DNA of 64,000 nucleotides from a virus (IMGVR_UViG_3300025066_000007), one strand, 5' to 3'. Shown: positions 891-39,163, numbered from the stretch's first letter. The notes: generated by a model from the letters alone, not told the origin. Translations and numbers: made by a program.

Positions 891-1412
891 TTAAACAGCC
901 TCTTCTAAAAGTTCCTCGCGCTTGTCTTTTTTATCCTCGCCAGGAACATTATGGTGGTCAAGAAGGTCATCAACATATTCTTCTGCATCTTCTTTTCCAA
1001 GCTCTTTTGAGTGATATTTTATTTGCTTTTGAAATGCAGCTACTTCATCTGGTTCATCAAGATAATTATGTGCTTCGTCGCTTTTAGGCTTACCAAAATC
1101 TTTTATGTGCTGGATCGCATGAACTAACTCATGAATAACATATCTCATTCTAATCTCTGGAGGCTTATCTAGAAGCTTTGTGCTCAAGCTAATGCTCCCA
1201 TCTGTAGTTTTTGCAGCAACCTCTAAGTCCTCAAAGAGAATCGGAACAGAAACAAGAAGCCATTCGTCTACGCCTTCTTCTCTGCAAATTTCTTTAGCAA
1301 CTTCATCATTCATCATGGTGGTCCTGATGTCTGCTAGAAGCCTCATCTGCTTCATCAGCTTATTTTCTGATTTCTTTTTTGCAAAAATAGTAAACATGTT
1401 ATTCTTTCTCAA
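891..1412 (-). CDS. Zincin-like (HExxH) metalloprotease-fold protein
   Basis: YVIHELVHAIQH followed by EPDEVAAF (downstream third-ligand Glu pattern). Confidence 0.7.
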   Translation of the reverse strand: MRKNNMFTIFAKKKSENKLMKQMRLLADIRTTMMNDEVAKEICREEGVDEWLLVSVPILFEDLEVAAKTTDGSISLSTKLLDKPPEIRMRYVIHELVHAIQHIKDFGKPKSDEAHNYLDEPDEVAAFQKQIKYHSKELGKEDAEEYVDDLLDHHNVPGEDKKDKREELLEEAV

Positions 1413-1694: not shown

Positions 1695-2372
1695 ATGCTA
1701 AAAATTTCTAAAAATATAGAAACGCCAGAAGAGCTATATCACTGGCTCAGCAAAAACAGAGAAGGTTTGATTAGAAGCATAAAAAATAAATATTTCTCTG
1801 CTAGAGCAGGTCATTATAGTCCAATATATATTAGGGATAAGATCAAACTCACTCGACCATATGACAAAAAAGAGGTTGAGGTCCAAGTAAATGTTGTGTC
1901 AAAAGAAACTTTTATCGCAAAAGGATGGGACGAAAACTACTATGCATATGCGGATACCAGCTCAAACACAATTTGGCTAAATACAGACATCTTATTTAAA
2001 TATACAAAGTCGGAACGAGGATGGAAATTCATTCAGCATGCCATGGTTCATGAGATAACACATATTATTGATCCAAAGCTATATGACCCAGACCTCGACC
2101 AAAGGGATGATCTCCCATATTTCAAGCGCCCTTATGAATTTGATGCCTATTCTGCTGGCTTCTCTGACATTATGCGAAACAAATATGAGCCTGAATATAT
2201 CTTAAAAATGCTCAAAGATACAGAGGTGTGGAATAAGCATCCAAATAAGCCTAAAGCCCTCAAAGAGTGGTCGCCAAAGCAATTAAGGCTTTTTAAGATT
2301 AGACTATATCATGATGTAATAAAAGATATGGAGGAGGAGAGAGAGGATCTGGAGGGCCTAGAGTCCCTTTGA
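1695..2372 (+). CDS. Zincin-like (HExxH) metalloprotease-fold protein; only plus-strand gene
   Basis: AMVHEITHIID plus KRPYEFDAY; fills a gap with no minus-strand ORF. Confidence 0.75.
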   Translation: MLKISKNIETPEELYHWLSKNREGLIRSIKNKYFSARAGHYSPIYIRDKIKLTRPYDKKEVEVQVNVVSKETFIAKGWDENYYAYADTSSNTIWLNTDILFKYTKSERGWKFIQHAMVHEITHIIDPKLYDPDLDQRDDLPYFKRPYEFDAYSAGFSDIMRNKYEPEYILKMLKDTEVWNKHPNKPKALKEWSPKQLRLFKIRLYHDVIKDMEEEREDLEGLESL

Positions 2373-3665
2373 ATGATATAACTTCGATATTGCCAAAGAC
2401 TCTTTCTTTAATCCATTAGACAAGGCCCAGCTCTCCAAAGTCTTGAGCTTTTCGGACAGTCCGCTTTTTGCTTTATTTAGGAAGGCCGGAGCAACTCCTA
2501 ATTCATCATATAAGTCTTTTCTTTTGAATCTATCACTCGGAAAGATTCCTCCCAAAAAGTCCTCAAAAACAAGCTCTGATGGATTTTCTTTGTCAGAAAA
2601 ATTTAATTTATTTTCAATATATTTCTGATTTTCTCTTAAGCTTTTTTCTATGAGCTTAGCGTCTGCTTCCGAAAGAAAGATCGCGCCATTTGTGTAATAA
2701 ATTTCATCGTTTATCTTTACTATAAAATATTCATCGAACAAACTATCCACTGGAATCTTTAAGATATCAGGCTTAAGATCTTTCAGATCATACTTGAGCT
2801 TTAATAGCTTAGATTTAGGAGAGCCTCGGTCTTCATAGTTAACTCCCAGATCTTCAATCAGGTCTATAATATATTTGTGATAGTCCGCCTTTGCAGGAGA
2901 GCTCCCAGCTCCTTCAATGCTGGAAATTCTCTTTTCATTTGGATGATATGTCGCGACTATATGTGGGTTCTGGTTCTTGTCGAGCAGAATTAGCATCGTT
3001 CTGTCTTCGTCTATGCCCATAGCGCCAACTGAGCCACAGTTTTTCATTTTTTGGCCAAGAATATCACACTTCTTTCCAGAGTCAATCCAGCGATAACCAT
3101 TTACATATTGCTTAATGGTCGGCATCTCTAAAGAGATTTTTTTATCTGCATAAATCTCTGCAGCTTCTTTGTAAGAAAGCTTCTTATATTGATTTAAATT
3201 ATTTACTTCTCCAGATACGATATCTCTAATCAAATCTCTATCAAAGAAAATGTCTTTCAAGAAGATCTCTTTGATTTCTTTCTTTATAAGTGGAATGTGC
3301 TCCTCTAGGTCTATCCTTCTTGTTTCTTGCGAATAGGGATCATAACTTTCGATTCCACTATAGCCATTCTCCTTAGACCACTTATCATATGCGTCTTCTC
3401 CCTTGAGAGCGGCATCTAGCATCTGCAGTAAATTAGCAAGCAACCCTTCTCCCCTGAGTCTTCCAACGTTTCTAATCCAGTCCATCGGGATCTTATTTAC
3501 TCCCCACAAATGATATTCATTCATCCATTTTGCAATTATAAATGCATTTTTTCCAAATCTTTCAATAAATACTTTCGCAATAACCTCTGGATATCCGAGG
3601 TTTACAATTTGCTGAGCAGAAGCCGCAAACTTATTAAGCGCTAATAGCTTATTGAAACGATTCAT
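2358..3665 (-). CDS. PcfJ-like domain protein with C-terminal shared helical tag
   Basis: LGQKMKNCGS...LILLDKNQNPHIVATY resembles the PcfJ-type GxxMxxC...LxDxxxxPH pattern; C-terminus KLKTLESWALSNGLKKESLAI. Confidence 0.6.
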   Translation of the reverse strand: MNRFNKLLALNKFAASAQQIVNLGYPEVIAKVFIERFGKNAFIIAKWMNEYHLWGVNKIPMDWIRNVGRLRGEGLLANLLQMLDAALKGEDAYDKWSKENGYSGIESYDPYSQETRRIDLEEHIPLIKKEIKEIFLKDIFFDRDLIRDIVSGEVNNLNQYKKLSYKEAAEIYADKKISLEMPTIKQYVNGYRWIDSGKKCDILGQKMKNCGSVGAMGIDEDRTMLILLDKNQNPHIVATYHPNEKRISSIEGAGSSPAKADYHKYIIDLIEDLGVNYEDRGSPKSKLLKLKYDLKDLKPDILKIPVDSLFDEYFIVKINDEIYYTNGAIFLSEADAKLIEKSLRENQKYIENKLNFSDKENPSELVFEDFLGGIFPSDRFKRKDLYDELGVAPAFLNKAKSGLSEKLKTLESWALSNGLKKESLAISKLYHSKGL

Positions 3666-4450
3666 TCTAGAATATCCCCATATCCCTTAAGCCATTCTCT
3701 CCCACTTTCTATGTCCTGCACTTGATTGTCAGAGATCTTTAACCAAATATATTTTTCACCAGCATTTATCGCAGCAAAAGCTCTATGATTTCCGTCTCTA
3801 ATTTGGAATATAAACTCACCAAAGTCTCCGGATCTATTCTCTTCCGCCTCTGTTAACTGAAGCTCCATATCTTTCTTGAGCTCATCATATGATTCTTCAA
3901 CAATGTTGTAATTATCATCATAATCAGAGTTATTACTCAACCACTCTTTTTTATCCGCAAGGTACTGGTCAAGCTCTTCATCGCCAGTTGTAAGCGGAGC
4001 ATGGCCATAATCTTCTTGATATTTTATTGACTCTTCAATTTCGGAAACCCCAACCTTTGACATCTCGCCATAGGGAGCGTAAAGGATTACTTTTTCTGGA
4101 GATGAATTAATCTTATCAGTTAATTGAGAAATCTTTTCGTCATAGAAGACATTCCCTTGGATCGGATAAACGTAATGGGAGTCCGCTCTTACCATTTTGC
4201 CGGTAGTGCCTATCCAGATTACATTGCGTCCATGATAAAGGTTGTCCTCTTCTTTTTCTCTGGAGACTAATTCATCTTCTAGATCTGGGTAAAATTCGTC
4301 ATAAGATTCTGCGCCATAACTCGGCTGCTCCCATAGGGGGCCTTCATTGCGCGGCATAGAATATTTGAAAACTTGCCTTGCCTCTTTCCTCAGGCCGCTA
4401 GAAGCTAGCCAACCTGACAATGCGACAAGCTTCTTTAATCTTCTGTTCAT
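3662..4450 (-). CDS. ParB/Sulfiredoxin-fold protein with N-terminal shared helical tag
   Basis: FQIRDGNHRAFAAINAG (DGxHR signature); N-terminus KLVALSGWLASSGLRKEARQV. Confidence 0.65.
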   Translation of the reverse strand: MNRRLKKLVALSGWLASSGLRKEARQVFKYSMPRNEGPLWEQPSYGAESYDEFYPDLEDELVSREKEEDNLYHGRNVIWIGTTGKMVRADSHYVYPIQGNVFYDEKISQLTDKINSSPEKVILYAPYGEMSKVGVSEIEESIKYQEDYGHAPLTTGDEELDQYLADKKEWLSNNSDYDDNYNIVEESYDELKKDMELQLTEAEENRSGDFGEFIFQIRDGNHRAFAAINAGEKYIWLKISDNQVQDIESGREWLKGYGDILE

Positions 4451-4468
4451 TACAAAAGATTATGGAAA

Positions 4469-4476
4469 ATTAGTAG
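4469..4476 (-). promoter_or_regulatory. CTACTAAT putative late-promoter motif
   Basis: Exact motif about 19 nt upstream of the ATG at 4450. Confidence 0.55.
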
Positions 4477-4621
4477 CTACAGGGGAATGTTAACGCTATT
4501 AAGGCGCTGAACTATGGACAGCGTACAGGGCAAGAATATTACAGGAGATATCAACGCACATTTAACGTAGGCATCTAGTGATTTACTAGTAATTGGGGGA
4601 TTTAATGTTCGCTCCAGAATA

Positions 4622-6208
4622 TTAACAGAGTAATGCGGACAGCTCTTTTGCCTCTTTTCTGAAGCCGTTGGTGCGGAGCCACGCTTCAAGAGGTTGGAGT
4701 TTGTTTTCTTCGGGAGCTTTGTTCTTTGGGTTAAGATGTGCGTATTCAGGAATATTATGTAGGCCGTAATAAAAGAACTCTTCAGGATCTTTCTCTGCCC
4801 AATACTTTGCGGTAGGTATTCCAAACTCTACGTATTCACGAAGCTTATGTAGGCCATAAGAAAAGAAGCGTTTAGGCTTTTTCTCTACCAAATTCTTTGC
4901 GGCAGGTATTCCAAACTCTGCGTATTCAGGAATCTCATGTAGGTCGTAATGAAAGAAGCATATAGGATCTTTCTCTGCGCAATTCTTTGCGGCAGGTATT
5001 TTAAACTCTGCGTATTCAGGAGTCTTGTGCAGGCCATAACCAAAGAACTCTTCAGGACTTTTCTCTGCCAAATTCTTTGCGGCAACCTTTTTCGTATCCG
5101 CTCTTGCCGCATTATTTTGCGTAAATTGCAGCAAAATGCTTGCTATCTGAGAATCATCATTGATTGCTGCAATCTGGAGTTCCAATTCCTCCGGAGTTGT
5201 TTCTGCTATTATTTTATTGAATTTCGTATCTTCTCTTCTGCCTATATCCGCATAGATAGCCGAAATTATCGAATCCGCTTCGGATCCCAAATATTCTTGA
5301 ATTTGGTTCAAGCTTAAATCACGATTATCTGTATTGACTGTAGCATTTTGATTCGTTAAAAGCTGCGGCTTTCCATCTCTTTTGGTAAATCCAATAGATA
5401 TTTTTCTCATCGGATTTGATTTCTCAAAAAATTCCGAATCTTGCTTTGTTATTACGTAATAAAGGTAAATATTTTTTGAAGCATAATTTGCAAACTTATT
5501 TCCTTTAAGATAAGAAGTACACCAAGTGGTTCCCCTGGCCCAATACTGAGAGGATTGAGTGGTTCCACTCAAAACTGTGATGAAGTCATCCGATTGATAA
5601 ATGTAATCCGTATATTTCGGATCCAGAGCGTGTTTTTCTATTTTTGAATAATAATATTCTTTATTTGAAGCAAGTTTTTCATCAAAATAGCTTCTTAATT
5701 CGGAGAGAAGATTAAAGGATTCCAATGGCTTCTCAAGCTGCTCCGGATTTCTTTGGTAAAATAAAACGCTTTTTATGATTTCTTCTATCGGATCCGCTTC
5801 TTCATTAAAAAGCATCTTGAAAATCCAGGGATAATATCTCGGATTAACTTCAGACTTCTTTAATGTCTCCAATCCCTTGACATGCTCCGGATCTTTTAGC
5901 TGTGGATGAGTTGCATTTGCCTTGTCAATTTCCAAGTCCTTCGGACTCTTCGATACACCTCCGCTGCGAATTGCAGCAATGATCTCTTCCTTTGGCTTGC
6001 CTTTGAATTGATTTATGCTTTGAAGATATTCCTCATTGGATCCGAAGTTGCTTCGAAATGCTGAATAATATTGATCCGAAAAAGAAAACATCATATTTGC
6101 ATTTTCGACAGGAAATAATTCAGAGAACTTATCTCTGCTTTCTTGCTTTTCAACGCTTACTGCCGCTTCCTTGAGTAAATCCTTAATTCTACTTGCTCTT
6201 GATAACAT
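4622..6208 (-). CDS. PcfJ-like domain protein with four 30-aa repeats and C-terminal shared tag
   Basis: QYWARGTTWCTS...KFANYASKNIYLYYVI (GTxWC pattern); C-terminus KLQPLEAWLRTNGFRKEAKEL. Confidence 0.6.
   Translation of the reverse strand: MLSRASRIKDLLKEAAVSVEKQESRDKFSELFPVENANMMFSFSDQYYSAFRSNFGSNEEYLQSINQFKGKPKEEIIAAIRSGGVSKSPKDLEIDKANATHPQLKDPEHVKGLETLKKSEVNPRYYPWIFKMLFNEEADPIEEIIKSVLFYQRNPEQLEKPLESFNLLSELRSYFDEKLASNKEYYYSKIEKHALDPKYTDYIYQSDDFITVLSGTTQSSQYWARGTTWCTSYLKGNKFANYASKNIYLYYVITKQDSEFFEKSNPMRKISIGFTKRDGKPQLLTNQNATVNTDNRDLSLNQIQEYLGSEADSIISAIYADIGRREDTKFNKIIAETTPEELELQIAAINDDSQIASILLQFTQNNAARADTKKVAAKNLAEKSPEEFFGYGLHKTPEYAEFKIPAAKNCAEKDPICFFHYDLHEIPEYAEFGIPAAKNLVEKKPKRFFSYGLHKLREYVEFGIPTAKYWAEKDPEEFFYYGLHNIPEYAHLNPKNKAPEENKLQPLEAWLRTNGFRKEAKELSALLC
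4724..5083 (-). repeat. Four in-frame 90-bp (30-aa) tandem repeats, unit AAKNLAEKxPEEFFxYGLHxxPEYAEFxIP
   Basis: Unit starts at 5083, 4993, 4903 and 4813 (exact 90-nt period). Confidence 0.9.
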
Positions 6209-6250
6209 ATTAATTCCTGTTATTATTCAGAATAATAATAGGATTCGCCA

Positions 6251-6447
6251 TTAATCCAGGGGGATATTGTGCCTTTTCATATAACGCTTAAAAGTGGTTG
6301 CTCCGACTCCCAGGGATCGTGCAGCGCCCTTAACCGTTCCGATTTTGTTATAGGTCTCAGCAATGTTTTTTTAGATAAAAGCGTCTTGAATCTTTCGGCT
6401 TTTGAGCCGGTTGATTCTTTGATCCTTATATTAGTAGAGAAAAGCAA
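6251..6447 (-). pseudogene. Cryptic Fis-type helix-turn-helix ORF broken by a 1-nt frameshift in an A7 run
   Basis: 6251..6370 reads KNIAETYNKIGTVKGAARSLGVGATTFKRYMKRHNIPLD*. The upstream open frame (TTG 6447: LLFSTNIRIKESTGSKAERFKTLLSK) joins it only if one A is added to the run at 6366..6372. Confidence 0.45.
6430..6437 (-). promoter_or_regulatory. CTACTAAT putative late-promoter motif
   Basis: Exact motif in the gap after the stop of 6463..7371. Confidence 0.5.
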
Positions 6448-6462
6448 GTGCAGCGGCTACTA

Positions 6463-8166: not shown

Positions 8167-8174
8167 ATTAGTAG
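8167..8174 (-). promoter_or_regulatory. CTACTAAT putative late-promoter motif
   Basis: Exact motif immediately after the terminator T-tract and just upstream of the TTG at 8161. Confidence 0.6.
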
Positions 8175-12231: not shown

Positions 12232-13239
12232 TTACACAGTACCAGTTGCAACGCCTCGGGGGTTAACAATACCGACTCCGATTATTTCATTCACGACCCA
12301 ACCTAATTTCAGCTGCTTCGGCTCATCAGCAGGTAGTACCTCGATGTCCTGACGGACAGGCATTACGCCGACGAACTCAGGATCCGCACAAGCGAATGCA
12401 CGGCCTGAAGGAACAACCTTGGACACAATGATGTCAGCGCCAAAGACGTGGCCGTAAAGACCGGTCTGTAGCAACTCACGCTGGGTGACGGGGTCAACCT
12501 GTGAGTTTGTGTTACCAGCAGATTCCCAGGTGAGAATGTCGGTGAACTCATTGATGTTTAGGAAGTACTTGGAGGTTACCAAGTCCCAGCGGTCAATCTG
12601 GCGCTTGAGGTTGATGAGACCGTCTTTCTCAAGTGAAGTACCAGCGGGGGATAGGTCTACAGCCGCGTTCTCACCACCCTGAGTAGAGTCACCAGCGAAC
12701 TCAAGCGCGGAGAATACGTTAGCATCCTCGTGAGCCTGAATTTCCTGACGAGCCTTCTGCTGGGCACGATCGATCACGTTGAACCGACGACGCTTGACTT
12801 CCGCGATGCGAACGGTCGGGTTTGAGACAACCTCAAACTCGGGAACGTTTACGCGGTCACCGAATACGCGTGACTCAGGAGCTGCACCGTTGCTGGAAAC
12901 AACAACAGCCGCTACATCGATATCACGGTCGTAAACCGGAAGAGCACCCTGGGGAAGCGGATCGACTACGAGAGCCTTACGCGCCACACCCTGATAGTCA
13001 AGGTTGCGACGAATCGGGTTCGCCATCGCTTGACCTAGAGCAATCTTGCCTTCTTGCGTCATTAGAGCCTGCTTGATCATCTCATCTCTCTGACCATCAT
13101 TTAGGCTAGGCGCTGCGGCCTGAGCGTTACTTGACGGCTGAAGATCTTCGATGATTGAAGCATACTTGACGATCTGTGATAGAGCCTCTTGTACGTTAGA
13201 GGCATTGATCTCACCATGTGTGTTAAATAGATTTGTCAT
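12232..13239 (-). CDS. Major capsid protein (HK97 fold)
   Basis: 335 aa with strong AGGAG RBS, visibly biased codon usage, and followed by a terminator. Lies downstream of protease/scaffold and decoration genes. PIRRNLDYQGVARKALVVDPLPQG...PEFEVVSNP...QEIQAHED pattern. Confidence 0.85.
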   Translation of the reverse strand: MTNLFNTHGEINASNVQEALSQIVKYASIIEDLQPSSNAQAAAPSLNDGQRDEMIKQALMTQEGKIALGQAMANPIRRNLDYQGVARKALVVDPLPQGALPVYDRDIDVAAVVVSSNGAAPESRVFGDRVNVPEFEVVSNPTVRIAEVKRRRFNVIDRAQQKARQEIQAHEDANVFSALEFAGDSTQGGENAAVDLSPAGTSLEKDGLINLKRQIDRWDLVTSKYFLNINEFTDILTWESAGNTNSQVDPVTQRELLQTGLYGHVFGADIIVSKVVPSGRAFACADPEFVGVMPVRQDIEVLPADEPKQLKLGWVVNEIIGVGIVNPRGVATGTV

Positions 13240-16480: not shown

Positions 16481-16488
16481 ATTAGTAG
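16481..16488 (-). promoter_or_regulatory. CTACTAAT putative late-promoter motif
   Basis: Exact motif between 16496..17188 and the next gene. Confidence 0.55.
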
Positions 16489-17243: not shown

Positions 17244-17251
17244 ATTAATAG
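17244..17251 (-). promoter_or_regulatory. CTATTAAT putative late-promoter motif (within palindrome CTATTAATAG)
   Basis: Exact motif 10 nt after the stop of 17261..17773. Confidence 0.45.
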
Positions 17252-17260
17252 GAAATTTCT

Positions 17261-17773
17261 TTAAGCAATTTTACTCATAGTAGAAAGAACCATGTCCGCA
17301 GCAAACTGATCCCCAGAATCGCTTAACTCTTTTGCCATTTTGCTCAAAGAGTCAGTTATCTCGGTCTTTTTCGCTGCTTCTTTTTTGAAGTCTCCAATTA
17401 TGCTCTTTGCAGTAGCCTCTACTACATCCGCAGCAAAAGACTCTCCCTTATTACTTAGATCTTTAGAAATCTTCTTGAGACCATCGATAATATGTTTTGC
17501 TCTTGCAGTCAGAACTAAGCCTTCACTTGCGTAAGAGTCTAGTCCTGAAACATCAATTAAATCGGAAGCATAATGCTCCCTCTCTTCTTCGGAGTCCAAA
17601 ATTAGGTCTTCTAGCTCAGAATCTGAAACAACATTTTCAGCTTCCGCAGGAGCCTCCTCCAAGGAAGCCGTCTTAACAACGGCTTCCTTGGCTGGAGTGC
17701 GCGGTGCGGCGCCCTTCAATAGCCCTGCAAATTCCTGAGCAATATTATCTCCATTCTTTTTTAGGCTATACAT
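17261..17773 (-). CDS. Putative internal head protein carrying two copies of the shared helical tag
   Basis: LKKISKDLSNKGESFAADVV and LSKMAKELSDSGDQFAADMV; VVKTAS, FKKEAA and MSKIA motifs. Confidence 0.65.
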   Translation of the reverse strand: MYSLKKNGDNIAQEFAGLLKGAAPRTPAKEAVVKTASLEEAPAEAENVVSDSELEDLILDSEEEREHYASDLIDVSGLDSYASEGLVLTARAKHIIDGLKKISKDLSNKGESFAADVVEATAKSIIGDFKKEAAKKTEITDSLSKMAKELSDSGDQFAADMVLSTMSKIA

Positions 17774-17782
17774 GACTTCTCC

Positions 17783-20700
17783 TTACTCGTCCCAGAGTGA
17801 AGATAGGGAATCGGCAGACATAGGCCCCGGCACGCTTGCAGTGTTATCTTCAGTTTTAACGCCAATATTTAGGCCGCCGAGATCAGATGCAATCTTAACT
17901 GTCCCAACTGAGCGTGCGCTTGCAATGCTCCTCTTAAACGCCTCAAAGGCATTGTTGTCGAAAGACATGATCTCATCTACCTGTCGGTCCAAAGAAGCCT
18001 TAGATGACGGCAACAGACCCTTGGTTTGCATTTCTAGACCAACATCATACGCTCTACGAAGCTTGATTCGATATTCTTCCCTAGCTTCATTTGCACGCTT
18101 CTCTTCCATCTTACTCGCAAGCGCAGCCTTTAGTGCTCCACTCTTATCGGAAGCCTCAACTTCTAGATCATCCTCAGCTTCGTTAACAACCGCATCAGCA
18201 GCTTCGTTAACAACCGCATCGTCAGCTTCGTTAACAACCGCATCAGCAGCTTCGTTAACAACCGCATCGTCAGCGCAGGATTCTGCTCCCATTTCGTCAG
18301 AGTCTTCGTCCATTGCTTTCTTATTTAGCTTGTCGGCTGCGAATCTACTTTCCGCTTGCTTTAGGATGGCTTCCCGGCGATCCCTTCTTAGCTGCATAGC
18401 CGCAGTAACCAGCTCTTCTGTGCCATCATCCGCGAGGTCTTCCATTGGTTCTTCCGCTGCTGGATCATCCATAAGGTCATCAGCAAGATTAACAGTTGAA
18501 TCCACAGCCATATCCTCTGTCGGAGCGAAATCTTCTGCCATATCCATTGCAAGTCGAACAATTGCCTTCGCCTCACCGGTCGCCCTATCAGCGTCCTTAA
18601 TCGCATCACTTGCAAGCTTTCTAAACTCAATTTTCTGAGCAGAGGATAGCTTGCTAATATTATCAAAGGTTTCTGCCACCATAGAGAGCTCATCTGCAGA
18701 TCCATCAAGACGCTCGAAGGCCGTCTTCAGATTGGTAAGCATCTTAGATGATAGTGCTGTCATTTCTGCATCAGCACCCTCTGCAGCAGCGCCTTCTTCT
18801 CCGGTAAAGACATTGACGTCTACATCTGCAGTCCTTCCATCCTCAAGCTCGCTAACAAGATCTCTGACCTCATCGATTAGCTGCTCCATTTCAGCCAGCC
18901 TATTGTCGACTGCAGTTCCGGGCTCTTCCGGCTCTTCGTCCATCGGCATTTCAGCGTCTAGCTCCATCGGCATTTCGTCTTCCATCGGCATTTCTGCTTC
19001 CATCGGCATTTCTGCTTCCATTGGAGGCATAGCAGCCTCCTCCGGTGCAGCAGGCAACTCCTGAGCAGTCTTAAGCAAGCTGGTAACATGAGTTAATCCA
19101 GCAATGCGAATTTGAGAACAAACCTCGCGACCGTAATCACGGCTCTTTAGCCACTCCCAGTTATCCTCTAGGCTGGGCCCAAAGATCTCTTGGCCAGTAG
19201 CCGCGATCACCCTCTTGTCTCCAGCAAAAACCTCTAGGAGACTCGCCTTCTTGTCTACGGCTCCATTGAGAGCTCTTTTCACAGAGAATCTTGTGCTTAG
19301 CCCGGGGCCATTGTAAGCTGCTCGGCTCATCTTCTCTTTGACCTCCTTGTCGCCAGGGAACATGCCGGAATCTCCACCCATGCTTCCTGTCTGTAGCATG
19401 TGCTTGTCATCGCCATAAGTTTGCGGCTCACTCTTGTAGGTGTTGGGCTCAGCGCCTTCGGATCCGCCTTGCATGTAAGCCAAACGCTTTAGCTTACGCT
19501 CTTGGAGTTGAGCTCGACTCAGCTTCTCCTTTGTCTCCTTGTCGCCAGGGAACATGCCGGAATCTCCGCCCATGCTTCCTGTCTGTAGCATTTGCTTATC
19601 TTTGCTCTGCGCATCGGTAGGCTCACTCTTAAATGTGTTAGGCTCCGCACCCTCTGAGCCGCCCTGCATGTAAGCAATTCTACGGCGTAGCTCAGCTCTC
19701 TTCCTCAATCTTGACTCGTTCATAATATCCTCCACTATTGAATTAATTGAAAAGTCGTTAACAAAATCGCTGCTATCACCATTATTGGCAGTTTTAACGT
19801 GTTGATCTTGCTTACTGCTAATTACCGAAACAGCGGGCTCTCCACTGGCCGGAAAACTTAAAATATCATCCTCATCACCAGCGAAGTCAGGCTGGTCCCC
19901 TGTATCTCCGCCGCCAAGAAGTCCTATTCTAGATGTTGCAGCGCTTTGCTCTGCAACATCGCCTGGACCTCTTCCGTCTGAGTTTTCATAAGATGAAAAC
20001 TCCTCTCTGTTTGTGCCAGAGAGATCTGGTCGGAATTTCTCTTCCAGCTCCCCCATAAGCATCTTGATGACTCTCTTGACATCATCATTGACATTTGGAT
20101 CTCCCAAAAGACTAGCCGCATCGGGCATTGTCTTTAGGGTTTCTGCTATGTTTCTTGCCTCTTCTGATTCGTCAGTAAATGAAGTCTTTAAAAGACCATT
20201 ATTTTCTAGAAAACTTCTTACAATACGGTCTCTATCATCTACGGAGCAGCTATTATCTCCGCAGGCAGTTTTCATTATGCCATCCAAATGTTCCGCTTGC
20301 TTAAGGCTAAGCCTTCCTAACATTTCAGAAACATTGTCTACACCATAATTTGTAAATTCTTTTTTGTATTCCTGCAAGGAGGCTATACACTTTAGAAGGA
20401 CTGCTCCAGGCTCTGCAGGCTGAACCACTAGGCTGTACTCAATTGGCTTGAGCCCAACATTGACCTCTCCATGAGCAGCCCTGCTTGAGATGCACTTGCA
20501 GTATTCATTTTGATTTGTTGCTTTGTTTTGGCAATCTGAGCAGATAGAGGTTTCTACTGCTGTACCCATTGATCCGTATCGAACCATTCCGGTTTCAACC
20601 TTCCTGGCAAGGTCTGGATAGTTGACCTTATCAAGGGCGCAGAGTCCAACGACCTGCTTAAACTTCTCATCGTAATGGGTATCTAGAATGATTCCTCGTA

Positions 20701-21097
20701 TTCCGTCTACAGAGCTTGATTCGTGGTCTCTACAAAGCGGGAGGCCTATCCATTTTGATGTAGCCTTTTTTAGCTCAGATTCGGGGAATATATCGGAATT
20801 ATTATTTTTGTGAGCAGGAACATTGCCATGCCACTTCCAGTTTTGATCGAAAAAGCCCCAGGCGTCTTCCTTTCCTACTTTCTTTATCTTTCCCTCTCCG
20901 TCTATAAGGGCTGACTCTGCGGCCTTTAAAAAAATGATCGAAAAATATAGAAAGTCGTCAGACTTGGGAGCAATATTACGAAGGCTTTTTGCCAACTTTG
21001 TAAATCGTTTTACGATAACAGGATTTGCACATACGGCCTCGTGCGTATGTGTCTCTATATCGTAATTATTTGGAGAAAAGCATATCTTCTTTATCAT
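17783..21097 (-). CDS. Prohead (maturation) protease - scaffold fusion
   Basis: N-terminal HK97-gp4/assemblin-like domain: HKNNNSDIFPESEL, LCRDH (His, 20723..20725), RYGSMG (Ser, 20570..20572). Followed by ~850 aa of acidic low-complexity/coiled-coil scaffold. Located between portal and MCP. Confidence 0.85.
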   Translation of the reverse strand: MIKKICFSPNNYDIETHTHEAVCANPVIVKRFTKLAKSLRNIAPKSDDFLYFSIIFLKAAESALIDGEGKIKKVGKEDAWGFFDQNWKWHGNVPAHKNNNSDIFPESELKKATSKWIGLPLCRDHESSSVDGIRGIILDTHYDEKFKQVVGLCALDKVNYPDLARKVETGMVRYGSMGTAVETSICSDCQNKATNQNEYCKCISSRAAHGEVNVGLKPIEYSLVVQPAEPGAVLLKCIASLQEYKKEFTNYGVDNVSEMLGRLSLKQAEHLDGIMKTACGDNSCSVDDRDRIVRSFLENNGLLKTSFTDESEEARNIAETLKTMPDAASLLGDPNVNDDVKRVIKMLMGELEEKFRPDLSGTNREEFSSYENSDGRGPGDVAEQSAATSRIGLLGGGDTGDQPDFAGDEDDILSFPASGEPAVSVISSKQDQHVKTANNGDSSDFVNDFSINSIVEDIMNESRLRKRAELRRRIAYMQGGSEGAEPNTFKSEPTDAQSKDKQMLQTGSMGGDSGMFPGDKETKEKLSRAQLQERKLKRLAYMQGGSEGAEPNTYKSEPQTYGDDKHMLQTGSMGGDSGMFPGDKEVKEKMSRAAYNGPGLSTRFSVKRALNGAVDKKASLLEVFAGDKRVIAATGQEIFGPSLEDNWEWLKSRDYGREVCSQIRIAGLTHVTSLLKTAQELPAAPEEAAMPPMEAEMPMEAEMPMEDEMPMELDAEMPMDEEPEEPGTAVDNRLAEMEQLIDEVRDLVSELEDGRTADVDVNVFTGEEGAAAEGADAEMTALSSKMLTNLKTAFERLDGSADELSMVAETFDNISKLSSAQKIEFRKLASDAIKDADRATGEAKAIVRLAMDMAEDFAPTEDMAVDSTVNLADDLMDDPAAEEPMEDLADDGTEELVTAAMQLRRDRREAILKQAESRFAADKLNKKAMDEDSDEMGAESCADDAVVNEAADAVVNEADDAVVNEAADAVVNEAEDDLEVEASDKSGALKAALASKMEEKRANEAREEYRIKLRRAYDVGLEMQTKGLLPSSKASLDRQVDEIMSFDNNAFEAFKRSIASARSVGTVKIASDLGGLNIGVKTEDNTASVPGPMSADSLSSLWDE
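18177..18272 (-). repeat. Four 24-bp in-frame repeats (DAVVNEA[AD])
   Basis: gcttcgttaacaaccgcatc(agca/gtca) x4, alternating variants. Confidence 0.9.
18940..19030 (-). repeat. EMPME[AD] 18-bp in-frame repeats in the scaffold
   Basis: MPPMEAEMPMEAEMPMEDEMPMELDAEMPMDEE. Confidence 0.8.
19321..19675 (-). repeat. 195-bp (65-aa) tandem duplication within the scaffold
   Basis: AYMQGGSEGAEPNT[FY]KSEP...MLQTGSMGGDSGMFPGDKE[TV]KEK[LM]SRA starts at 19675 and 19480. Confidence 0.9.
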
Positions 21098-28190: not shown

Positions 28191-31040
28191 TTAAATTCTC
28201 CTCTTAATATTCGCGATTACAGGCCTTGGATATTCGAGTCTTTTATCTAGCCCAGGCCTCATAGAGAACCCCTTGGTTAGGTCGAATTTATACGCCATAT
28301 AGGCGTATATTAGCGCCATAAATCCATCATTTGGCGAGTTTCCCTTGACGTAAGTCTTTATGGGCTGACCTCCGGATGTCCTTATTTTGGTCTCCATAGA
28401 TGTGCAGTGATCAATGAGCCACTCCATGTGCTCATAGCTCTTCCATGGAAATCTAACCTTTCCCTTTCTAAACAGCTCAATTAATTCGTCAATTAATAAA
28501 TCTTTATTATAAGAAATAATTAGCTCATCCTCTCTATATTTTACTGGTTTGGCCAAGCTTCCACTTCCTTGAGCTCCAAGAAACCTATCTCCGTATACTA
28601 ATTGAAGATCCGAAACAACGTCTTGTCCAAAGAACCAGTCTGATACGCCTCTCGTTACACCAAACCTTCGATACATCTCTTTTATAGTATCTTTTTTAAA
28701 ATCAAATGTATTCTTCTTTAACTTATGGGCGTGTTCTATAGATAAGATCCCATCTGGACTTGCAGACAGAACGACTACACAAGAGAAGGACTGCCCTCCT
28801 CTTGAATTAGGATCGTCATCTTTTCCACCCCAGTCAGAACCAAGATAAACAGTTTTTTCCTTTGAGCTAATAGATTTTGCAAAATATCTATCCGGATCCC
28901 TGCATAAGTTATAAACTTCTGCCTTAGTAAGGGGGGAGCCTGCGCCAGAGTAAAACTCTCCAATAACTTCATTTTTCCAGATTCGCTCTGTTTGGGCAGG
29001 ATTATTTTCCGGCATTAACTTTTCTATATTTTCTTTTGTAAAATATGGAATATAAAGCTGATTGATGTGAAATCCAACGAAGTCGGATTCCTCAAAAGGC
29101 CTTGTTGACACCCACTTTCCAAGTTCTATAGCTTCTATTTTCTTCTGTTTTGTTCCGCAAAGAGGGCATTGAACTATGTTTTCATATAACCAAATTGACT
29201 GCCACCGATTATCATCTGGAAGATAAAAGGGATAAGTCTTCTTGCAATTAATGCACCCAAGATGGTAATAGCGCTGATCTGAAGTTCCCCATATTGTTGC
29301 GAAGTGACTGTTCTTGCTCTTAGGGGTTCCAAAATAAACCTGCACCCCCTGACCAACAGGGCCGTATTTTGCGGCAGTTAAAATCTTTGTTGCATTGCCG
29401 ATTGCATGCGGCAACATCTCTTGGCAATTATGAACGATAGGACCTCCGGTTCCGCTTGAGCCTTTTCTTGACGACAAAATAAAATTGTGATTATCTTCTA
29501 CCTCAATATCGTAAACGACCTCTTTCTTCTCAACGGGAGTTACATTATTGACAATTGTCCATGAGTATTCCTTAAAATCTTGGTTCCAGCTATAAGTTTC
29601 TCCGGCAAATGGCTTTAGCAGCTTATGTGACATAGATGGATGCACATATGGAGAGATTAATTCGGATAAGCTTTTGAATCCGTCCTTGTTAATGAGGACG
29701 TAAAAATAATGTTTATTTCGCTGCTTTGAAAAGTATTTTGAATAGTGACACTTTATTCCCATAGAATTAAGCTTCTTAACGATTCTTTTTTGAGAATCCT
29801 CATCAAATGAAGAGGTGTGCAACGTTCCGGCTGCAGAGCTCTTCCACCTTGCGTTTACAGATCCGTCATCCATAAACCAAATAGCCAGACCTCTCTCATC
29901 TAGCTCGTCTAGCACTTCTTGTGGACAAGTAGACTTTGTCTTTGGGAGATCAAGGTTCATACAAAACATTTTTGAGGAAAATCTTATCGCAGGCTTTTGG
30001 CTAAATCCATTTTTTTCAATTCTAGTTACATTCGCATTAATTATTTTTGACTTCCATTTGCAATACTCTTCCTGGGCCTCTCCGTGATTTACCATAAGTC
30101 TATGGCCTTTGTCACAAGTCCGATCAAGATGGCCATCTCCAAGAAAAGATCCAAGAACTAGCTGCCTCTGATCATCATTTAGAGCTCTGGAGCGCTGAGC
30201 TCCTTCTTTGCGTGATTTGAGCAGATCTCCGGACAAAAGTTCTTCTGCAGGAACCCATCCTCGACTCGTAAGGAATCTGTGGTTTCCAGTGCATTTTATT
30301 CGCCACTTTCCAGCTGTAATTTTAACTAAGCCCTTGGAGCCTCTGTTCCAAGCTTTTTTTATCTTCTTATATTCGAACTTTTCTATAGATTCGTTGAATG
30401 TTCTGGCCATCGGAAGCTCTTCTCCGGCCTCAAATCGCCTAAATAGCTCTCCTATCTTAACCTTTCCATCAGATGTCTCTATATGCTGATCGTAAGGAAA
30501 GCACTCATCGAAAATGCCAACATCAACGGTCATGCCACGAATTCTGTCTCCGTCTGTTCCAAGGCTGTCTATCCAGAGGGTTCCGGTATTAAACTGCTTC
30601 ATCGTAAGGTTGTCGACGGAGTTTGGAGTATTTAGCTTGTTTTTGGTTATGAAGTCATCTTTTGCGGTTCGAATAAGATTCTCTAACTTATCCTGAGAAA
30701 ACTTCTTCACCTGCCCTAAAGCTGGAAATAGGTGAATCACTCGAATATTCGGATCTGTGAACAGACCACTGTTGGTAAAGAACAGGTCAAGTGCTCCGGC
30801 CATCATAGTGGCGCCAACCTGTCGACCTTTCTTTATTACAACCGGCTTCCCATCGGGCCTTGTTGCTTGAAGTGCGATATAACGATAGATATCGGACATG
30901 AATTTCCAGCCGTTATCTAAAACGTTAAATTCAGCTCCATCTAAAGTTAGGTTATTCTTAGTAAAGTGCGCAGGATCGAAATCGAGAAAATTTGATTTTA
31001 ACTGTTCAAATAAATCTTTTTCGCTCTTTTTTGGTGCCAT
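28191..31040 (-). CDS. terL: Terminase large subunit (lambda GpA-like features; contains a LAGLIDADG intein)
   Basis: IKKGRQVGATM (Walker A region), VGIFDE|CQ Walker B, FGTP, Zn motif CINC...CPLC, GFHINQLY, nuclease LGSDWGG. Confidence 0.9.
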   Translation of the reverse strand: MAPKKSEKDLFEQLKSNFLDFDPAHFTKNNLTLDGAEFNVLDNGWKFMSDIYRYIALQATRPDGKPVVIKKGRQVGATMMAGALDLFFTNSGLFTDPNIRVIHLFPALGQVKKFSQDKLENLIRTAKDDFITKNKLNTPNSVDNLTMKQFNTGTLWIDSLGTDGDRIRGMTVDVGIFDECFPYDQHIETSDGKVKIGELFRRFEAGEELPMARTFNESIEKFEYKKIKKAWNRGSKGLVKITAGKWRIKCTGNHRFLTSRGWVPAEELLSGDLLKSRKEGAQRSRALNDDQRQLVLGSFLGDGHLDRTCDKGHRLMVNHGEAQEEYCKWKSKIINANVTRIEKNGFSQKPAIRFSSKMFCMNLDLPKTKSTCPQEVLDELDERGLAIWFMDDGSVNARWKSSAAGTLHTSSFDEDSQKRIVKKLNSMGIKCHYSKYFSKQRNKHYFYVLINKDGFKSLSELISPYVHPSMSHKLLKPFAGETYSWNQDFKEYSWTIVNNVTPVEKKEVVYDIEVEDNHNFILSSRKGSSGTGGPIVHNCQEMLPHAIGNATKILTAAKYGPVGQGVQVYFGTPKSKNSHFATIWGTSDQRYYHLGCINCKKTYPFYLPDDNRWQSIWLYENIVQCPLCGTKQKKIEAIELGKWVSTRPFEESDFVGFHINQLYIPYFTKENIEKLMPENNPAQTERIWKNEVIGEFYSGAGSPLTKAEVYNLCRDPDRYFAKSISSKEKTVYLGSDWGGKDDDPNSRGGQSFSCVVVLSASPDGILSIEHAHKLKKNTFDFKKDTIKEMYRRFGVTRGVSDWFFGQDVVSDLQLVYGDRFLGAQGSGSLAKPVKYREDELIISYNKDLLIDELIELFRKGKVRFPWKSYEHMEWLIDHCTSMETKIRTSGGQPIKTYVKGNSPNDGFMALIYAYMAYKFDLTKGFSMRPGLDKRLEYPRPVIANIKRRI
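29427..30503 (-). mobile_element. Intein with LAGLIDADG homing endonuclease (359 aa) in TerL Walker B
   Basis: CFPYDQ start after DE; CTGNH block B; LVLGSFLGDG and LAIWFMDDG; VYDIEVEDNHNF...IVHN|C end. Confidence 0.9.
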
Positions 31041-36493: not shown

Positions 36494-37015
36494 TTAGAAG
36501 GCTTTCTTGATAACCCAGTCTAACATGTCCGCTTCTTTTATCAGGCCTTTTTCGTCCAATTGGCTTGCAAGATTCATAAGATCAGTTTGCAGTCCAACAC
36601 TGCCGCCTGCGATTTCTCTTCCATCTTCAGTTTTGAATCCTTCGTTATAATCGTAGATCTTATTTGTATATGGATCCTGCATTATACCGTCACCAATGCG
36701 CCTAGCCTGAACCCCCACTCTATCAGGAGAGTATCTGGTTGACAGAGAGGGACTTACCTCTCGTACTTCCGCCTTTGAGTCTTCATGATCTGAGCCGAGA
36801 TCATAAAGAGCCTCTGTCTCTCTGGACGGAACTTCTCCGCCTCTTTGGGAGAGGTACTTTTGTCTAGTCACATAATCTTCAACATTTGATTGGAAAGATT
36901 GAAAAATACCATGCTGATCAGCTGCAGCGACTTTGTGAAGATCCTCAAGCTTAGAGAGGTTCTTCGCAGAGGTTCCGGCCATAATGTTTAGGAGTTTAGA
37001 TTTTCGATCTTTCAT
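36494..37015 (-). CDS. Putative internal head protein with C-terminal shared tag
   Basis: C-terminus LMNLASQLDEKGLIKEADMLDWVIKKAF; LHKVAA motif. Confidence 0.65.
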   Translation of the reverse strand: MKDRKSKLLNIMAGTSAKNLSKLEDLHKVAAADQHGIFQSFQSNVEDYVTRQKYLSQRGGEVPSRETEALYDLGSDHEDSKAEVREVSPSLSTRYSPDRVGVQARRIGDGIMQDPYTNKIYDYNEGFKTEDGREIAGGSVGLQTDLMNLASQLDEKGLIKEADMLDWVIKKAF

Positions 37016-39155: not shown

Positions 39156-39163
39156 ATTAGTAG
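39156..39163 (-). promoter_or_regulatory. CTACTAAT putative late-promoter motif
   Basis: Immediately after the stop of 39164..39604; second motif at the replication/head boundary. Confidence 0.55.

Follow-up and report, generated by a model that had tools for sequence, protein, structure and literature searches.

Three adjacent genes in a 64,000-nt stretch of viral DNA (hereafter the window) encode otherwise unrelated proteins that carry the same short helical tag, a module that is real, portable and under selection at the protein level. From its sequence, we favour the reading that the tag is a prohead-association hairpin with a likely hydrophobic-x-K-x-A cleavage site, borne by accessory proteins of the Dar/polyvalent type, and we give that reading slightly under an even chance. 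The carriers, their tags and their leaders are:

2358..3665, minus strand: open reading frame of a 435-aa PcfJ-like protein, leader N-terminal and tag C-terminal (AF2 mean pLDDT 79)
2373..2480 (core 2388-2447), minus strand: C-terminal tag of the 435-aa protein, KLKTLESWALSNGLKKESLAI (residues 396-431; HMM E 7e-13)
3618..3656, minus strand: N-terminal leader of the 435-aa protein, FNKLLALNKFAAS, of the form hydrophobic-x-K-x-A-A/S, seen directly in the sequence
3662..4450, minus strand: 262-aa ParB/Srx-like protein with an N-terminal tag (AF2 mean pLDDT 87)
4361..4444, minus strand: N-terminal tag of the 262-aa protein, KLVALSGWLASSGLRKEARQV (residues 3-30, ending in VFKYS/MPR; HMM E 3e-12)
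4622..6208, minus strand: 528-aa protein with a leader, a conserved domain (GTTWCT...YLYYVITK), helical repeats of about 32 aa and a C-terminal tag
4625..4705, minus strand: C-terminal tag of the 528-aa protein, KLQPLEAWLRTNGFRKEAKEL (residues 502-528; HMM E 9e-14)
6158..6190, minus strand: N-terminal leader RIKDLLKEAAV of the 528-aa protein, from the sequence

All three tags lie in these minus-strand ORFs where the original prediction had placed them. An HMM built from the three sequences and run against six frames of the 105,986-bp contig recovered these tags alone (E 9e-14 to 3e-12), the next match having E 0.87 and lying on the non-coding strand, while a profile of four tags run against 1.84 billion representative proteins gave 6 matches at E <= 0.001: half of them were the window's own, and the others were P0018, with an internal tag, P0019, with an N-terminal tag, and one spurious repeat protein. 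Chance is excluded as the source of the likeness. The consensus, KLxxLSxWLxxNG[LF]xKEAxx[IL]xKL, is about 25-30 residues long and carries a net positive charge. Since the tags share only 50-57% pairwise nucleotide identity and about half of the identical residues are encoded by differing codons, their likeness is kept at the protein level and does not stem from recent DNA duplication, and the codons indicate that selection acts on the tag peptide. The further expectation of many copies genome-wide fails for the exact tag, with three copies in 106 kb and one real copy in a 316-kb relative (G001); an IMG/VR search with this exact tag, here called W-type, found no new carriers. The W-type tag is rare, often C-terminal and confined to the ParB/PcfJ island.

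The body of the 262-aa protein is ParB/Srx-like. The motif DGNHR is kept by 30 homologues, all of its residues being invariant but the aspartate, which is nearly so; the ParB/Srx-superfamily domain has the conserved active-site arginine; and the top Foldseek matches, which are weak (E ~0.7), are ParB, Noc and Srx (sulfiredoxin). The name PcfJ-like for the 435-aa protein holds as a lead, drawn from the atlas (features score 0.92, 171 shared; clustering with PcfJ on 17-26% of members) and from AFDB cluster matches that include PcfJ-like proteins (E 3.6e-3), and finds no backing in Pfam, where nothing, PcfJ (PF14284) included, matched above the gathering score. Two homologues of the 528-aa protein (P0007 and P0009) have a precomputed PF01816 (LRV) match within the repeat region. 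The leader of the 435-aa protein recurs in P0020-P0022 and in the 119-, 825-, 146- and 1122-aa proteins of locus L002, and in P0018 the leader is internal, behind the tag; that of the 528-aa family keeps a hydrophobic-hydrophobic-K-x-A-A motif throughout, with K13 and A15 invariant. Among cultured relatives, none with these tagged proteins was found.

The claim that the tag is a movable signal and not a sign of shared domain ancestry is well supported by its presence or absence among homologues of all three families. It stands at the N-terminus, at the C-terminus, at both ends or between two domains of a fused relative, about half of the copies being C-terminal and one internal: (i) in the 435-aa family the tag is kept in P0020 and P0021 and absent from six other homologues; (ii) in eight homologues of the 262-aa protein it is followed by hydrophobic-x-K-x-[AS][MVI]PR; (iii) in the 528-aa family a divergent but conserved C-terminal tag is found in P0003-P0007, P0010, P0012 and P0014, and an N-terminal one in P0007, P0009 and P0013; (iv) the 1122-aa fusion protein of L002 consists of an N-terminal domain, the tag, a PcfJ domain (Pfam E 7e-9; 36 bits, cut-off 25) and repeats, and in P0018 too the tag lies between an N-terminal domain and the PcfJ domain. 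The carriers do have different folds, as had been proposed, hhalign of the 435-aa family against the 528-aa family aligning the tag region only; for the 435-aa and 528-aa proteins the earlier label of enzymes is a putative one. The same peptide is thus attached to otherwise unrelated proteins, as is the capsid-targeting sequence (CTS) of phage T4.

In the AF2 models the tag of the 435-aa protein forms two helices (396-416 and 420-431) at pLDDT 49-59, values that suggest a loose tether, and that of the 262-aa protein forms two as well, 3-17 and 21-30, behind which lies a coil of 28 residues, the confidence of the hairpin being below that of the protein body. The tag is accordingly modelled as an autonomous amphipathic helix-turn-helix, exposed and flexibly tethered.

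A second type of hairpin, here called D-type, has the consensus LIKLAxxLDxxGLxKEADxLDxxIKK and is acidic, whereas the W-type tag is basic. HHalign of the two types gave a probability of 82% (P 1e-5) and a score of 22.5, where 150 column shuffles reached 15.7 at most; on this comparison these phages have a wider family of hairpins, of which the W-type tag is a rare and basic subtype. D-type hairpins are found on at least 17 proteins of G001 (94% complete), in about 20 copies, on small unrelated proteins, most of the genes lying among small function-unassigned ones. Copies with 27 of 28 residues identical nonetheless differ in 12 codons. A homologue of the scaffold (L042/L044) has two clear copies, which score 20 and 16 bits where decoys reach at most 4.2; in relatives, several other proteins whose genes lie upstream of that for the capsid protein have D-type copies, as does an L086 island protein. 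In one case the hairpin is followed by a hydrophobic segment resembling a lipobox, which would be a poor fit to a capsid-internal protein. The window has its own copy, in a protein whose final 30 residues have matches at the N-terminus of some 10 proteins in G001:

36497..36592, minus strand: D-type hairpin LQTDLMNLASQLDEKGLIKEADMLDWVIKKAF, C-terminal in a 173-aa protein encoded among the packaging/head genes

The tag also has a counterpart in the head module itself, where the following features were identified:

20171..20245, minus strand: SVDDRDRIVRSFLENNGLLKTSFTD, a conserved translated segment with the tag core in the 1104-aa prohead-protease protein
17261..17773, minus strand: acidic 170-aa protein, scaffold-like, with a pair of hairpins at its C-terminus and hydrophobic-x-K-x-A at its N-terminus
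13105..13239, minus strand: conserved N-terminal extension (45 residues, with QIVKYAS) of the major capsid protein

In the 1104-aa protein the protease domain occupies residues 95-206 (phrog_18299, E 7e-11), and directly behind it comes the segment in question, which is conserved in about 20 relatives and has the core [WF]LxxNGLxKx[AS] in common with the tags. HHalign of the tags against this segment scored 21.2 (P 7e-6), with a maximum of 11.1 in 100 shuffles. In 221,016 residues the regular expression [WFY][LA]..[NS]G[LFI].K.[AS] had matches in the tags, in the protease proteins and in one baseplate-like protein, and nowhere else; in 79 related head loci (510,299 residues) it matched protease proteins alone, and on reversed sequences nothing. 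These comparisons indicate that the tag is related to the prohead-protease segment. The 170-aa protein may be the scaffold, as its composition and its position between the protease and the major capsid protein suggest; its C-terminal hairpins scored 13.1 with the W-type tag (shuffle maximum 12.5) and 17.3 with the D-type (shuffle maximum 17.3), a marginal likeness. The motif hydrophobic-x-KEA is about threefold over-represented (15 observed against 4.4 expected; 25 against 8.8, in statistics that are partly post hoc) and concentrated in the head module and the island, and the hydrophobic-x-K-x-A type also occurs in the N-terminus of the scaffold-like protein and in the 45-residue capsid-protein extension, an extension that phage G gp27 lacks. 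A simple leader regular expression was weakly enriched at N-termini (6.7% against 4.6% in G000; 5.1% against 2.2% in G001).

An uncultured jumbo-phage clade attaches the hairpin to accessory proteins, here a DdrB-like ParB/Srx protein, PcfJ-like proteins and one with repeats, either at a terminus or between domains. On the reading that we favour, the hairpin would dock such a carrier to part of the prohead during assembly, the partner that would also hold the protease. The prohead protease would then cut hydrophobic-x-K-x-A in the turn ('GLRKEA'), with second cuts perhaps at the end of helix 2 or at N-terminal leaders ('LNKFA/AS', 'VFKYS/MP', the slash marking the presumed cut), and cleavage would free the cargo inside the head, to be ejected with the DNA. 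Binding partner, encapsidation and cleavage are what we infer from sequence. The earlier proposal of capsid loading gains indirect support from the core behind the protease domain, from the kinship with hairpins of a scaffold homologue and of head-module proteins, and from cargo types that suit the P1 Dar and polyvalent-protein precedent (PMC5512222, PMC9024508). Weighing against it are the rarity of the W-type tag, the distance of the tagged gene from the head module in G001 and the surroundings of most D-type genes there. A wider proposal is possible, and we regard it as rather doubtful: that in this marine jumbo-phage clade a single family of cleavable hairpin labels, with several subtypes, effective at either protein end and also present in the prohead protease and in scaffold homologues, marks at least 20 unrelated proteins (about 5% of the proteome) for prohead loading, cleavage by the head protease releasing them for injection.

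Another explanation, which we judge unlikely, is that the hairpins bundle with one another or with leader helices, so holding the island proteins in a non-covalent complex in which no capsid role is needed, the counterpart of the covalently fused 'polyvalent' proteins of relatives. It draws on a Rosetta-stone pattern: the ParB-like domain of L002, which has no tag, forms the C-terminal part of the 825-aa fusion (DUF5591 ... ParB-like), and the tag of the 1122-aa protein stands exactly at the domain junction with the leader behind it, while a stand-alone ParB carries the tag and has a tagged neighbour in the window, in L101 (262 and 698 aa) and in L102 (255 and 162 aa). The overlap between the stop of the 262-aa gene and the start of the 435-aa gene is in keeping with such a complex, as are the exposed, flexible tags of the models. 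However, the single real W-type tag of G001 would be without a partner, and mutual docking accounts neither for the same core in the prohead-protease protein nor for the roughly 20 D-type copies on small unrelated proteins.

It is improbable that the core is simply a protease recognition site or linker at module boundaries, devoid of any targeting role, at which the prohead protease or neighbouring zincin-like peptidases trim propeptides and split polyproteins. Such a role would suit the invariable position of the tag at a module boundary (N-terminal, C-terminal or interdomain), the agreement of its most conserved part, G[LF]xKEA, with the pattern hydrophobic-x-K-x-A, and the recurrence of that pattern in leaders, scaffold, capsid-protein extension and the end of the protease domain; in herpesvirus assemblin, self-release sites also have that location. 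On either side of the island lies an HExxH protein, one of 225 aa with HEITH as its sole feature and the other the following:

891..1412, minus strand: 173-aa zincin-like protein (HExxH, SprT/YgjP-like) with an Ish1-like C-terminus, directly downstream of the island

The gene of this 173-aa protein keeps the same position in G001, L094 and L101, and its matches (YgjP-like E 3e-4, SprT-like E 2e-3, Ish1, of the HeH type, E 7e-4) are all below the Pfam cut-offs. A cut site alone, however, needs no two conserved amphipathic helices (L1, L4, W7, L8 and helix 2), and a cut in a C-terminal tag would take off only some 10 residues. Were the prohead protease the enzyme, its substrates would be inside proheads anyway, so that this explanation merges with that of prohead association.

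There is only a slim chance that the tag is a SAP/HeH-like module, a basic hairpin that either binds a host hub protein or tethers to DNA the proteins acting on it, the ParB-like one for example: the tags are net positive, their helix 1 has the spacing L-x2-[EW]-L-x2-[RN]-G-L of SAP motifs and the neighbouring zincin-like protein ends in the weak Ish1 match, but none of the three tags matches Pfam SAP, HeH, LEM, Rho_N or Ish1 at E <= 10, HeH motifs have some 4 residues more between their helices, the hairpins of the related D-type are acidic and the protease match is left unexplained.

A prohead-association hairpin would have parallels and differences among known systems. Encapsulin loading peptides are portable and terminal, usually C-terminal and sometimes N-terminal, and bring unrelated enzymes into an HK97-fold shell. 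Encapsulins, however, have no portal, terminase, protease or DNA, and their peptides are short, extended and of a different consensus, whereas the tag is helical and the window encodes portal, large terminase, prohead protease and tail genes; we therefore rejected this identity. In the scaffolds of P22 and 80alpha and in SaPI1 CpmB a C-terminal helix-turn-helix binds coat, and the HK97 protease has a C-terminal capsid-targeting tail; terminal helical elements of this kind hold their carriers to the inner capsid surface and can carry foreign cargo. Here, by contrast, the significant match of the tag is to a segment behind the protease domain and not to a terminal tail.

The T4 CTS is a short conserved peptide on the unrelated, hypervariable internal proteins IPI-III and Alt, where it is both address and prohead-protease site (PMC9024508, PMC10052503). 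The tag is likewise a short peptide common to otherwise unrelated accessory proteins, for which address and cut site are proposed. It is not a strict T4-type CTS, from which it differs in length, position and motif: the CTS has about 10 residues, is strictly N-terminal and ends in L/I-x-E (a gp21-type protease site), whereas the tag is a hairpin of 25-30 residues, at either end or internal, with hydrophobic-x-K-x-A as its putative site. Packaging is proven for the CTS and predicted for the tag.

Phage ParB-like domains of the DdrB type adjoin virion genes, P1 DdrB being in the head, and polyvalent proteins are predicted to undergo zincin processing (PMC5512222); in DarB the first 30 residues are a sufficient capsid-targeting signal, and the P1 Dar proteins have no recognisable signal in common (PMC9024508). 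The island resembles these systems in that ParB/Srx-type and other conflict-type domains are encoded beside virion genes with putative zincin-like peptidases nearby, and the same domains are fused in multidomain relatives (the 825- and 1122-aa proteins of L002); in G001 the island is far from the head module. It differs from the Dar system in the one recognisable module common to its carriers. No sequence homology between P1 proteins and the window proteins was detected.

To our knowledge, no part of the phage virion is harder to predict than its internal and ejected proteins, and we know of no sequence rule for spotting them apart from the 10-residue CTS of T4. If the tag is a prohead label, the injected proteome of uncultured phages would be readable from sequence, and the cargo of uncultured giant phages, probably anti-defence (ParB/Srx-like, PcfJ-like), could be listed from metagenomes; there would also be a testable protease code, hydrophobic-x-K-x-A, for a phage-G-related head, and a compact tag with which large capsids could be loaded with foreign proteins. 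Were it a docking or processing element instead, it would still explain how accessory modules exchange and recombine at fixed junctions.

The capsid protein of this clade is closest to that of Bacillus phage G. The tagged island sits between head and tail genes, on the same strand and behind a motif common to structural genes; in most relatives its insertion site holds a small membrane (holin-like) gene, so the late-operon position says little, and in G001 the tagged gene is about 100 kb from the head module. The motif stands before the ParB-like gene:

4469..4476, minus strand: promoter-like motif CTACTAAT, 26 nt upstream of the 262-aa gene start

The anticipated enrichment behind CTA[CT]TAAT was marginal in the window (12 observed, 6.7 expected). 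Copies of the motif at most 120 nt upstream of a same-strand gene start account for 8 of 15 in G000 and 17 of 27 in G001, head and tail genes included.

The window corresponds to the minus strand of an IMG/VR contig of 105,986 bp that CheckV scores as 32% complete, so the genome should be roughly 300 kb. Translation of its ORFs bears out the original prediction that three adjacent ORFs (hereafter the island) carry a common terminal peptide, here called the W-type tag, each at its predicted position:

4622-6208, minus strand: 528-aa ORF, tag carrier, adjacent to the 262-aa ORF
3662-4450, minus strand: 262-aa ORF, tag carrier
2358-3665, minus strand: 435-aa ORF, tag carrier

Across all six frames of the whole contig these tags were the sole matches of an HMM built from them (E 9e-14 to 3e-12), the next-best match having an E of 0.87 and lying on the non-coding strand. 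A profile of four tags, compared with 1.84 billion representative proteins, found six at E <= 0.001: the three window proteins, P0018 (with an internal tag), P0019 (with an N-terminal tag on an unrelated 162-aa protein) and one spurious repeat protein. The E values of both searches rule out chance as the origin of the shared tag, and the exact W-type tag is rare: scans of IMG/VR with the single 435-aa and 528-aa proteins gave no matches, a scan with the 4-tag alignment re-found only the contigs of L002 (a locus of G001, a 94%-complete relative of 316 kb), and the tag was not found in phage G. The DNAs encoding the tags are 50–57% identical and use different codons at about half of the identical residues, which indicates that their likeness is maintained at the protein level and excludes a recent copying of DNA, whether by duplication, gene conversion or a mobile cassette.

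The three carriers were characterised as follows: (i) the 262-aa protein keeps a DGNHR motif across 30 homologues, with four residues invariant and the D nearly so, and its good AlphaFold2 model (mean pLDDT 87) has ParB, Noc and sulfiredoxin as best, weak PDB matches (E about 0.7); we call it ParB/Srx-like. (ii) The 435-aa protein has no Pfam match; PcfJ-like proteins are suggested by its atlas features and by AFDB fold clusters. (iii) In the 528-aa protein, a conserved domain outside the known families precedes helical repeats, each about 32 residues long. Two of the carriers, the 435-aa and 528-aa proteins, are at most putative enzymes. The claim that they represent different folds holds, since in profile-profile comparison with hhalign the tag is the sole part aligned between the 435 and 528 families, which rules out a common domain ancestry of these two bodies.

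The tag also proved to be a portable module, as predicted, being N-terminal, C-terminal, at both ends or interdomain among homologues, and present in some and absent from others. Within the 528 family most members carry it at the C-terminus, P0009 and P0013 at the N-terminus and P0007 at both termini, and in P0010 it is joined to a protein whose N-terminal domain differs; among the 435-family homologues, P0020 and P0021 alone have it. In eight members of the ParB-like family it is N-terminal, and in each of these hydrophobic-x-K-x-[AS][MVI]PR comes next; the remaining members have another leader (MKKIAADK...) or none. In G001 (L002) an 825-aa fusion ends in the ParB-like domain, which has no tag there, and the sole real tag lies in a 1122-aa protein, where it separates the N-terminal domain from a Pfam PcfJ domain; a leader-like LHKVAAQ comes immediately after the tag. 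An alignment of 18 tags gives the consensus KLxxLSxWLxxNGFxxEAxxIxKL. In the AlphaFold2 models the tag forms helices 3-17 and 21-30, followed by a 28-residue coil, in the 262-aa protein, and helices 396-416 and 420-431 (pLDDT 49–59) in the 435-aa protein; in both it is modelled with lower confidence than the body, as would fit a tethered interaction module. Such a module could serve for docking in place of covalent fusion, a role we consider unlikely.

P0011, of the 528 family, has after its tag a basic tail, about 45 residues long and bearing the motif CSNPKGFSQKQYC, that the other members lack. A second junction motif, K-I-A-[AS]-[DE]-[KR]-N-Y, recurs in several mutually unrelated proteins, placed after the leader or the hairpin (N-termini of P0030, P0036 and P0028; G001 genes at 53382, 156259, 161007 and 161293). 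The 825-aa fusion (L002:6249-8726) matches DUF5591 near its N-terminus (E 6e-6, 26.5 bits), and a GlmS-like gene lies directly upstream.

The W-type tag belongs beside a wider hairpin family, the D-type. About ten G001 proteins have N-termini that match the C-terminus of a 173-aa window protein (36497-36592). With a D-type HMM (LIKLAxxLDxxGLxKEADxLDxxIKK), 17 proteins of G001 score above the decoy ceiling, and the majority of the copies lie at the extreme N-terminus of unrelated bodies. Its fuller form, MIKELIKLAxxLDxxGLxKEADxLDxxIKK, is near-identical in at least 17 proteins (G001, loci L005-L020); examples are:

L012:14785-15123, L012:16684-17172 and L013:1293-1670: D-type hairpins in G001
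window 36497-36592: D-type hairpin of the window

Many copies cluster at 144–162 kb of the 316-kb genome. Most D-type genes of G001 have small genes of unknown function as neighbours, and one of the hairpins precedes a lipobox-like hydrophobic segment. Paralogous copies have up to 27 of 28 residues identical, yet 12 codons differ; this pattern, the same as in the W-type tags, excludes recent DNA copying here too, and peptide-level selection on the hairpin is strong. Compared by HHalign, the W and D types align without gaps and in the expected register (probability 82%, P 1e-5, score 22.5; maximum of 150 column shuffles 15.7). Neither the tags nor the D-type carriers match Pfam or PHROGs, and among cultured phages we found no homologue of the 262-, 435- and 528-aa proteins or of the D-type hairpin.

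PHROGs matches identify four head genes:

12232-13239: major capsid protein
17783-21097: prohead-protease domain, in a 1104-aa protein
in the window: portal and large terminase

Among cultured phages, Bacillus phage G has the closest capsid protein, gp27 (51–53% identity), and 79 related head loci were compared. The protease is the strongest link between tag and head. Immediately behind the protease domain, a segment is conserved in the 1104-aa protein and some 20 homologues, R..IV.SFL.NNGLLK.[AS] (window 20171-20245), preceded by CG..GCS and followed by a long variable acidic region. HHalign scores it at 21.2 against the W tags (P 7e-6; shuffle maximum 11.1) and at 19.7 against the D-type. 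A regular expression built from the tags, [WFY][LA]..[NS]G[LFI].K.[AS], recovered from the 221,016 residues of both genomes the four tags, their two protease proteins and a single baseplate-like protein, from 510,299 residues of the 79 loci protease proteins only, and from reversed sequences nothing. The protease segment may serve for self-release or as a helix that docks to the prohead. D-type hairpins also occur in the head loci, with two copies in a scaffold homologue (L042/L044) and others in several further proteins encoded upstream of the capsid gene; the likeness of the tag to the scaffold's own hairpins is marginal, and an atlas search with the scaffold-like protein gave no informative match.

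The baseplate-like protein (1102 aa; G001:292523-295831, L019), encoded between giant tail genes, contains an internal DWALSNGIYKESA, 9 of whose 13 residues match the core of the 435-aa tag, and which may be chance or a real embedded copy; a weak 12-bit G001 tag match at 294203-294235, inside this protein, was set aside. The scaffold homologue (349 aa; L042:1268-2317, L044:3526-4575) has peptidoglycan-binding-like repeats (GVLGPQT...) and its two D-type-like hairpins come in addition to the two usual C-terminal ones. The 949-aa large terminase gene (28191-31040) has terminase matches at residues 540-918 only; residues 289-474 match a LAGLIDADG homing endonuclease and residues 173-272 match helicase-like sequences, a pattern suggesting an intein or an inserted homing endonuclease.

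A short pattern, hydrophobic-x-K-x-A, recurs in (i) the turn of the tag (GLRKEA) and the end of its helix 2, (ii) the N-terminal leaders of tagged proteins (LNKFAAS, LLKEAAV), (iii) the scaffold N-terminus, the stretch between the scaffold hairpins and the protease segment, and (iv) a 45-residue N-terminal extension of the capsid protein (13105-13239; FNTxGExNASNVxEALxQIVKYASII), which the clade conserves and phage G gp27 lacks. This extension resembles the N-terminus of the scaffold-like protein (NGDxIAQEF...hydrophobic-x-K-x-A). The form hydrophobic-x-KEA is about three times over-represented and, in the window's own genome, concentrated in head module and island, with statistics that are modest and partly post hoc; a simpler regular expression for the N-terminal leader was only weakly enriched. 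The pattern would fit a hypothetical prohead-protease cleavage code. That the tag is purely a processing site seems to us rather improbable.

The best-supported reading, which we favour tentatively and at a little under an even chance, is as follows: the hairpin would associate its carrier with the prohead, thereby loading accessory proteins of the Dar/polyvalent type into the head, and a protease site within it would release them there. Little probability attaches to binding of nucleic acid or of some host factor as the role of the tag. ParB-like domains of the DdrB type adjoin virion genes, and DdrB of P1 is located in the head (PMC5512222). In P1 DarB the first 30 residues suffice for capsid targeting, and the Dar proteins have no common signal among them (PMC9024508), whereas the window proteins share one hairpin. 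Capsid-targeting and cargo-loading peptides are already known as a kind; a shared helical hairpin active at either end and echoing the protease would, if true, be a new variant.

Several findings call for caution with the favoured reading: the exact W-type tag is rare, D-type genes in G001 have the surroundings described above, the scaffold likeness is marginal, cultured phages gave no homologues of these proteins, and in G001 the tagged gene lies far from the head module. The site of the island in the window is an insertion hotspot, and most relatives have a small membrane (holin-like) gene there. The hotspot, which separates the 302-aa gene from the zincin/661-aa genes (window about 2358-6460), was also seen in L024, L027, L054, L071, L077, L081, L086, L094, L095 and L097, loci of relatives; depending on the relative it is empty or is occupied by the small holin-like gene, by a fusion containing ParB, by a gene of the 528 family in reversed orientation or by one for a 337-aa protein with a C-terminal D-type hairpin. 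A scan of the island for sigma-70 promoters and terminators stayed at background level. CTA[CT]TAAT occurs almost only on the coding strand:

873-880, 1667-1674, 4469-4476, 6430-6437: CTA[CT]TAAT copies
8167-8174, 16481-16488, 17244-17251, 39156-39163: further copies

More than half of the copies in both genomes lie within 120 nt upstream of gene starts, a position that makes the motif a candidate promoter element of the phage. At 891-1412, between head and tail genes and at a place kept in relatives, is encoded a 173-aa HExxH protein, SprT/YgjP-like below the cut-off, whose C-terminus weakly matches Ish1/HeH (E 7e-4).
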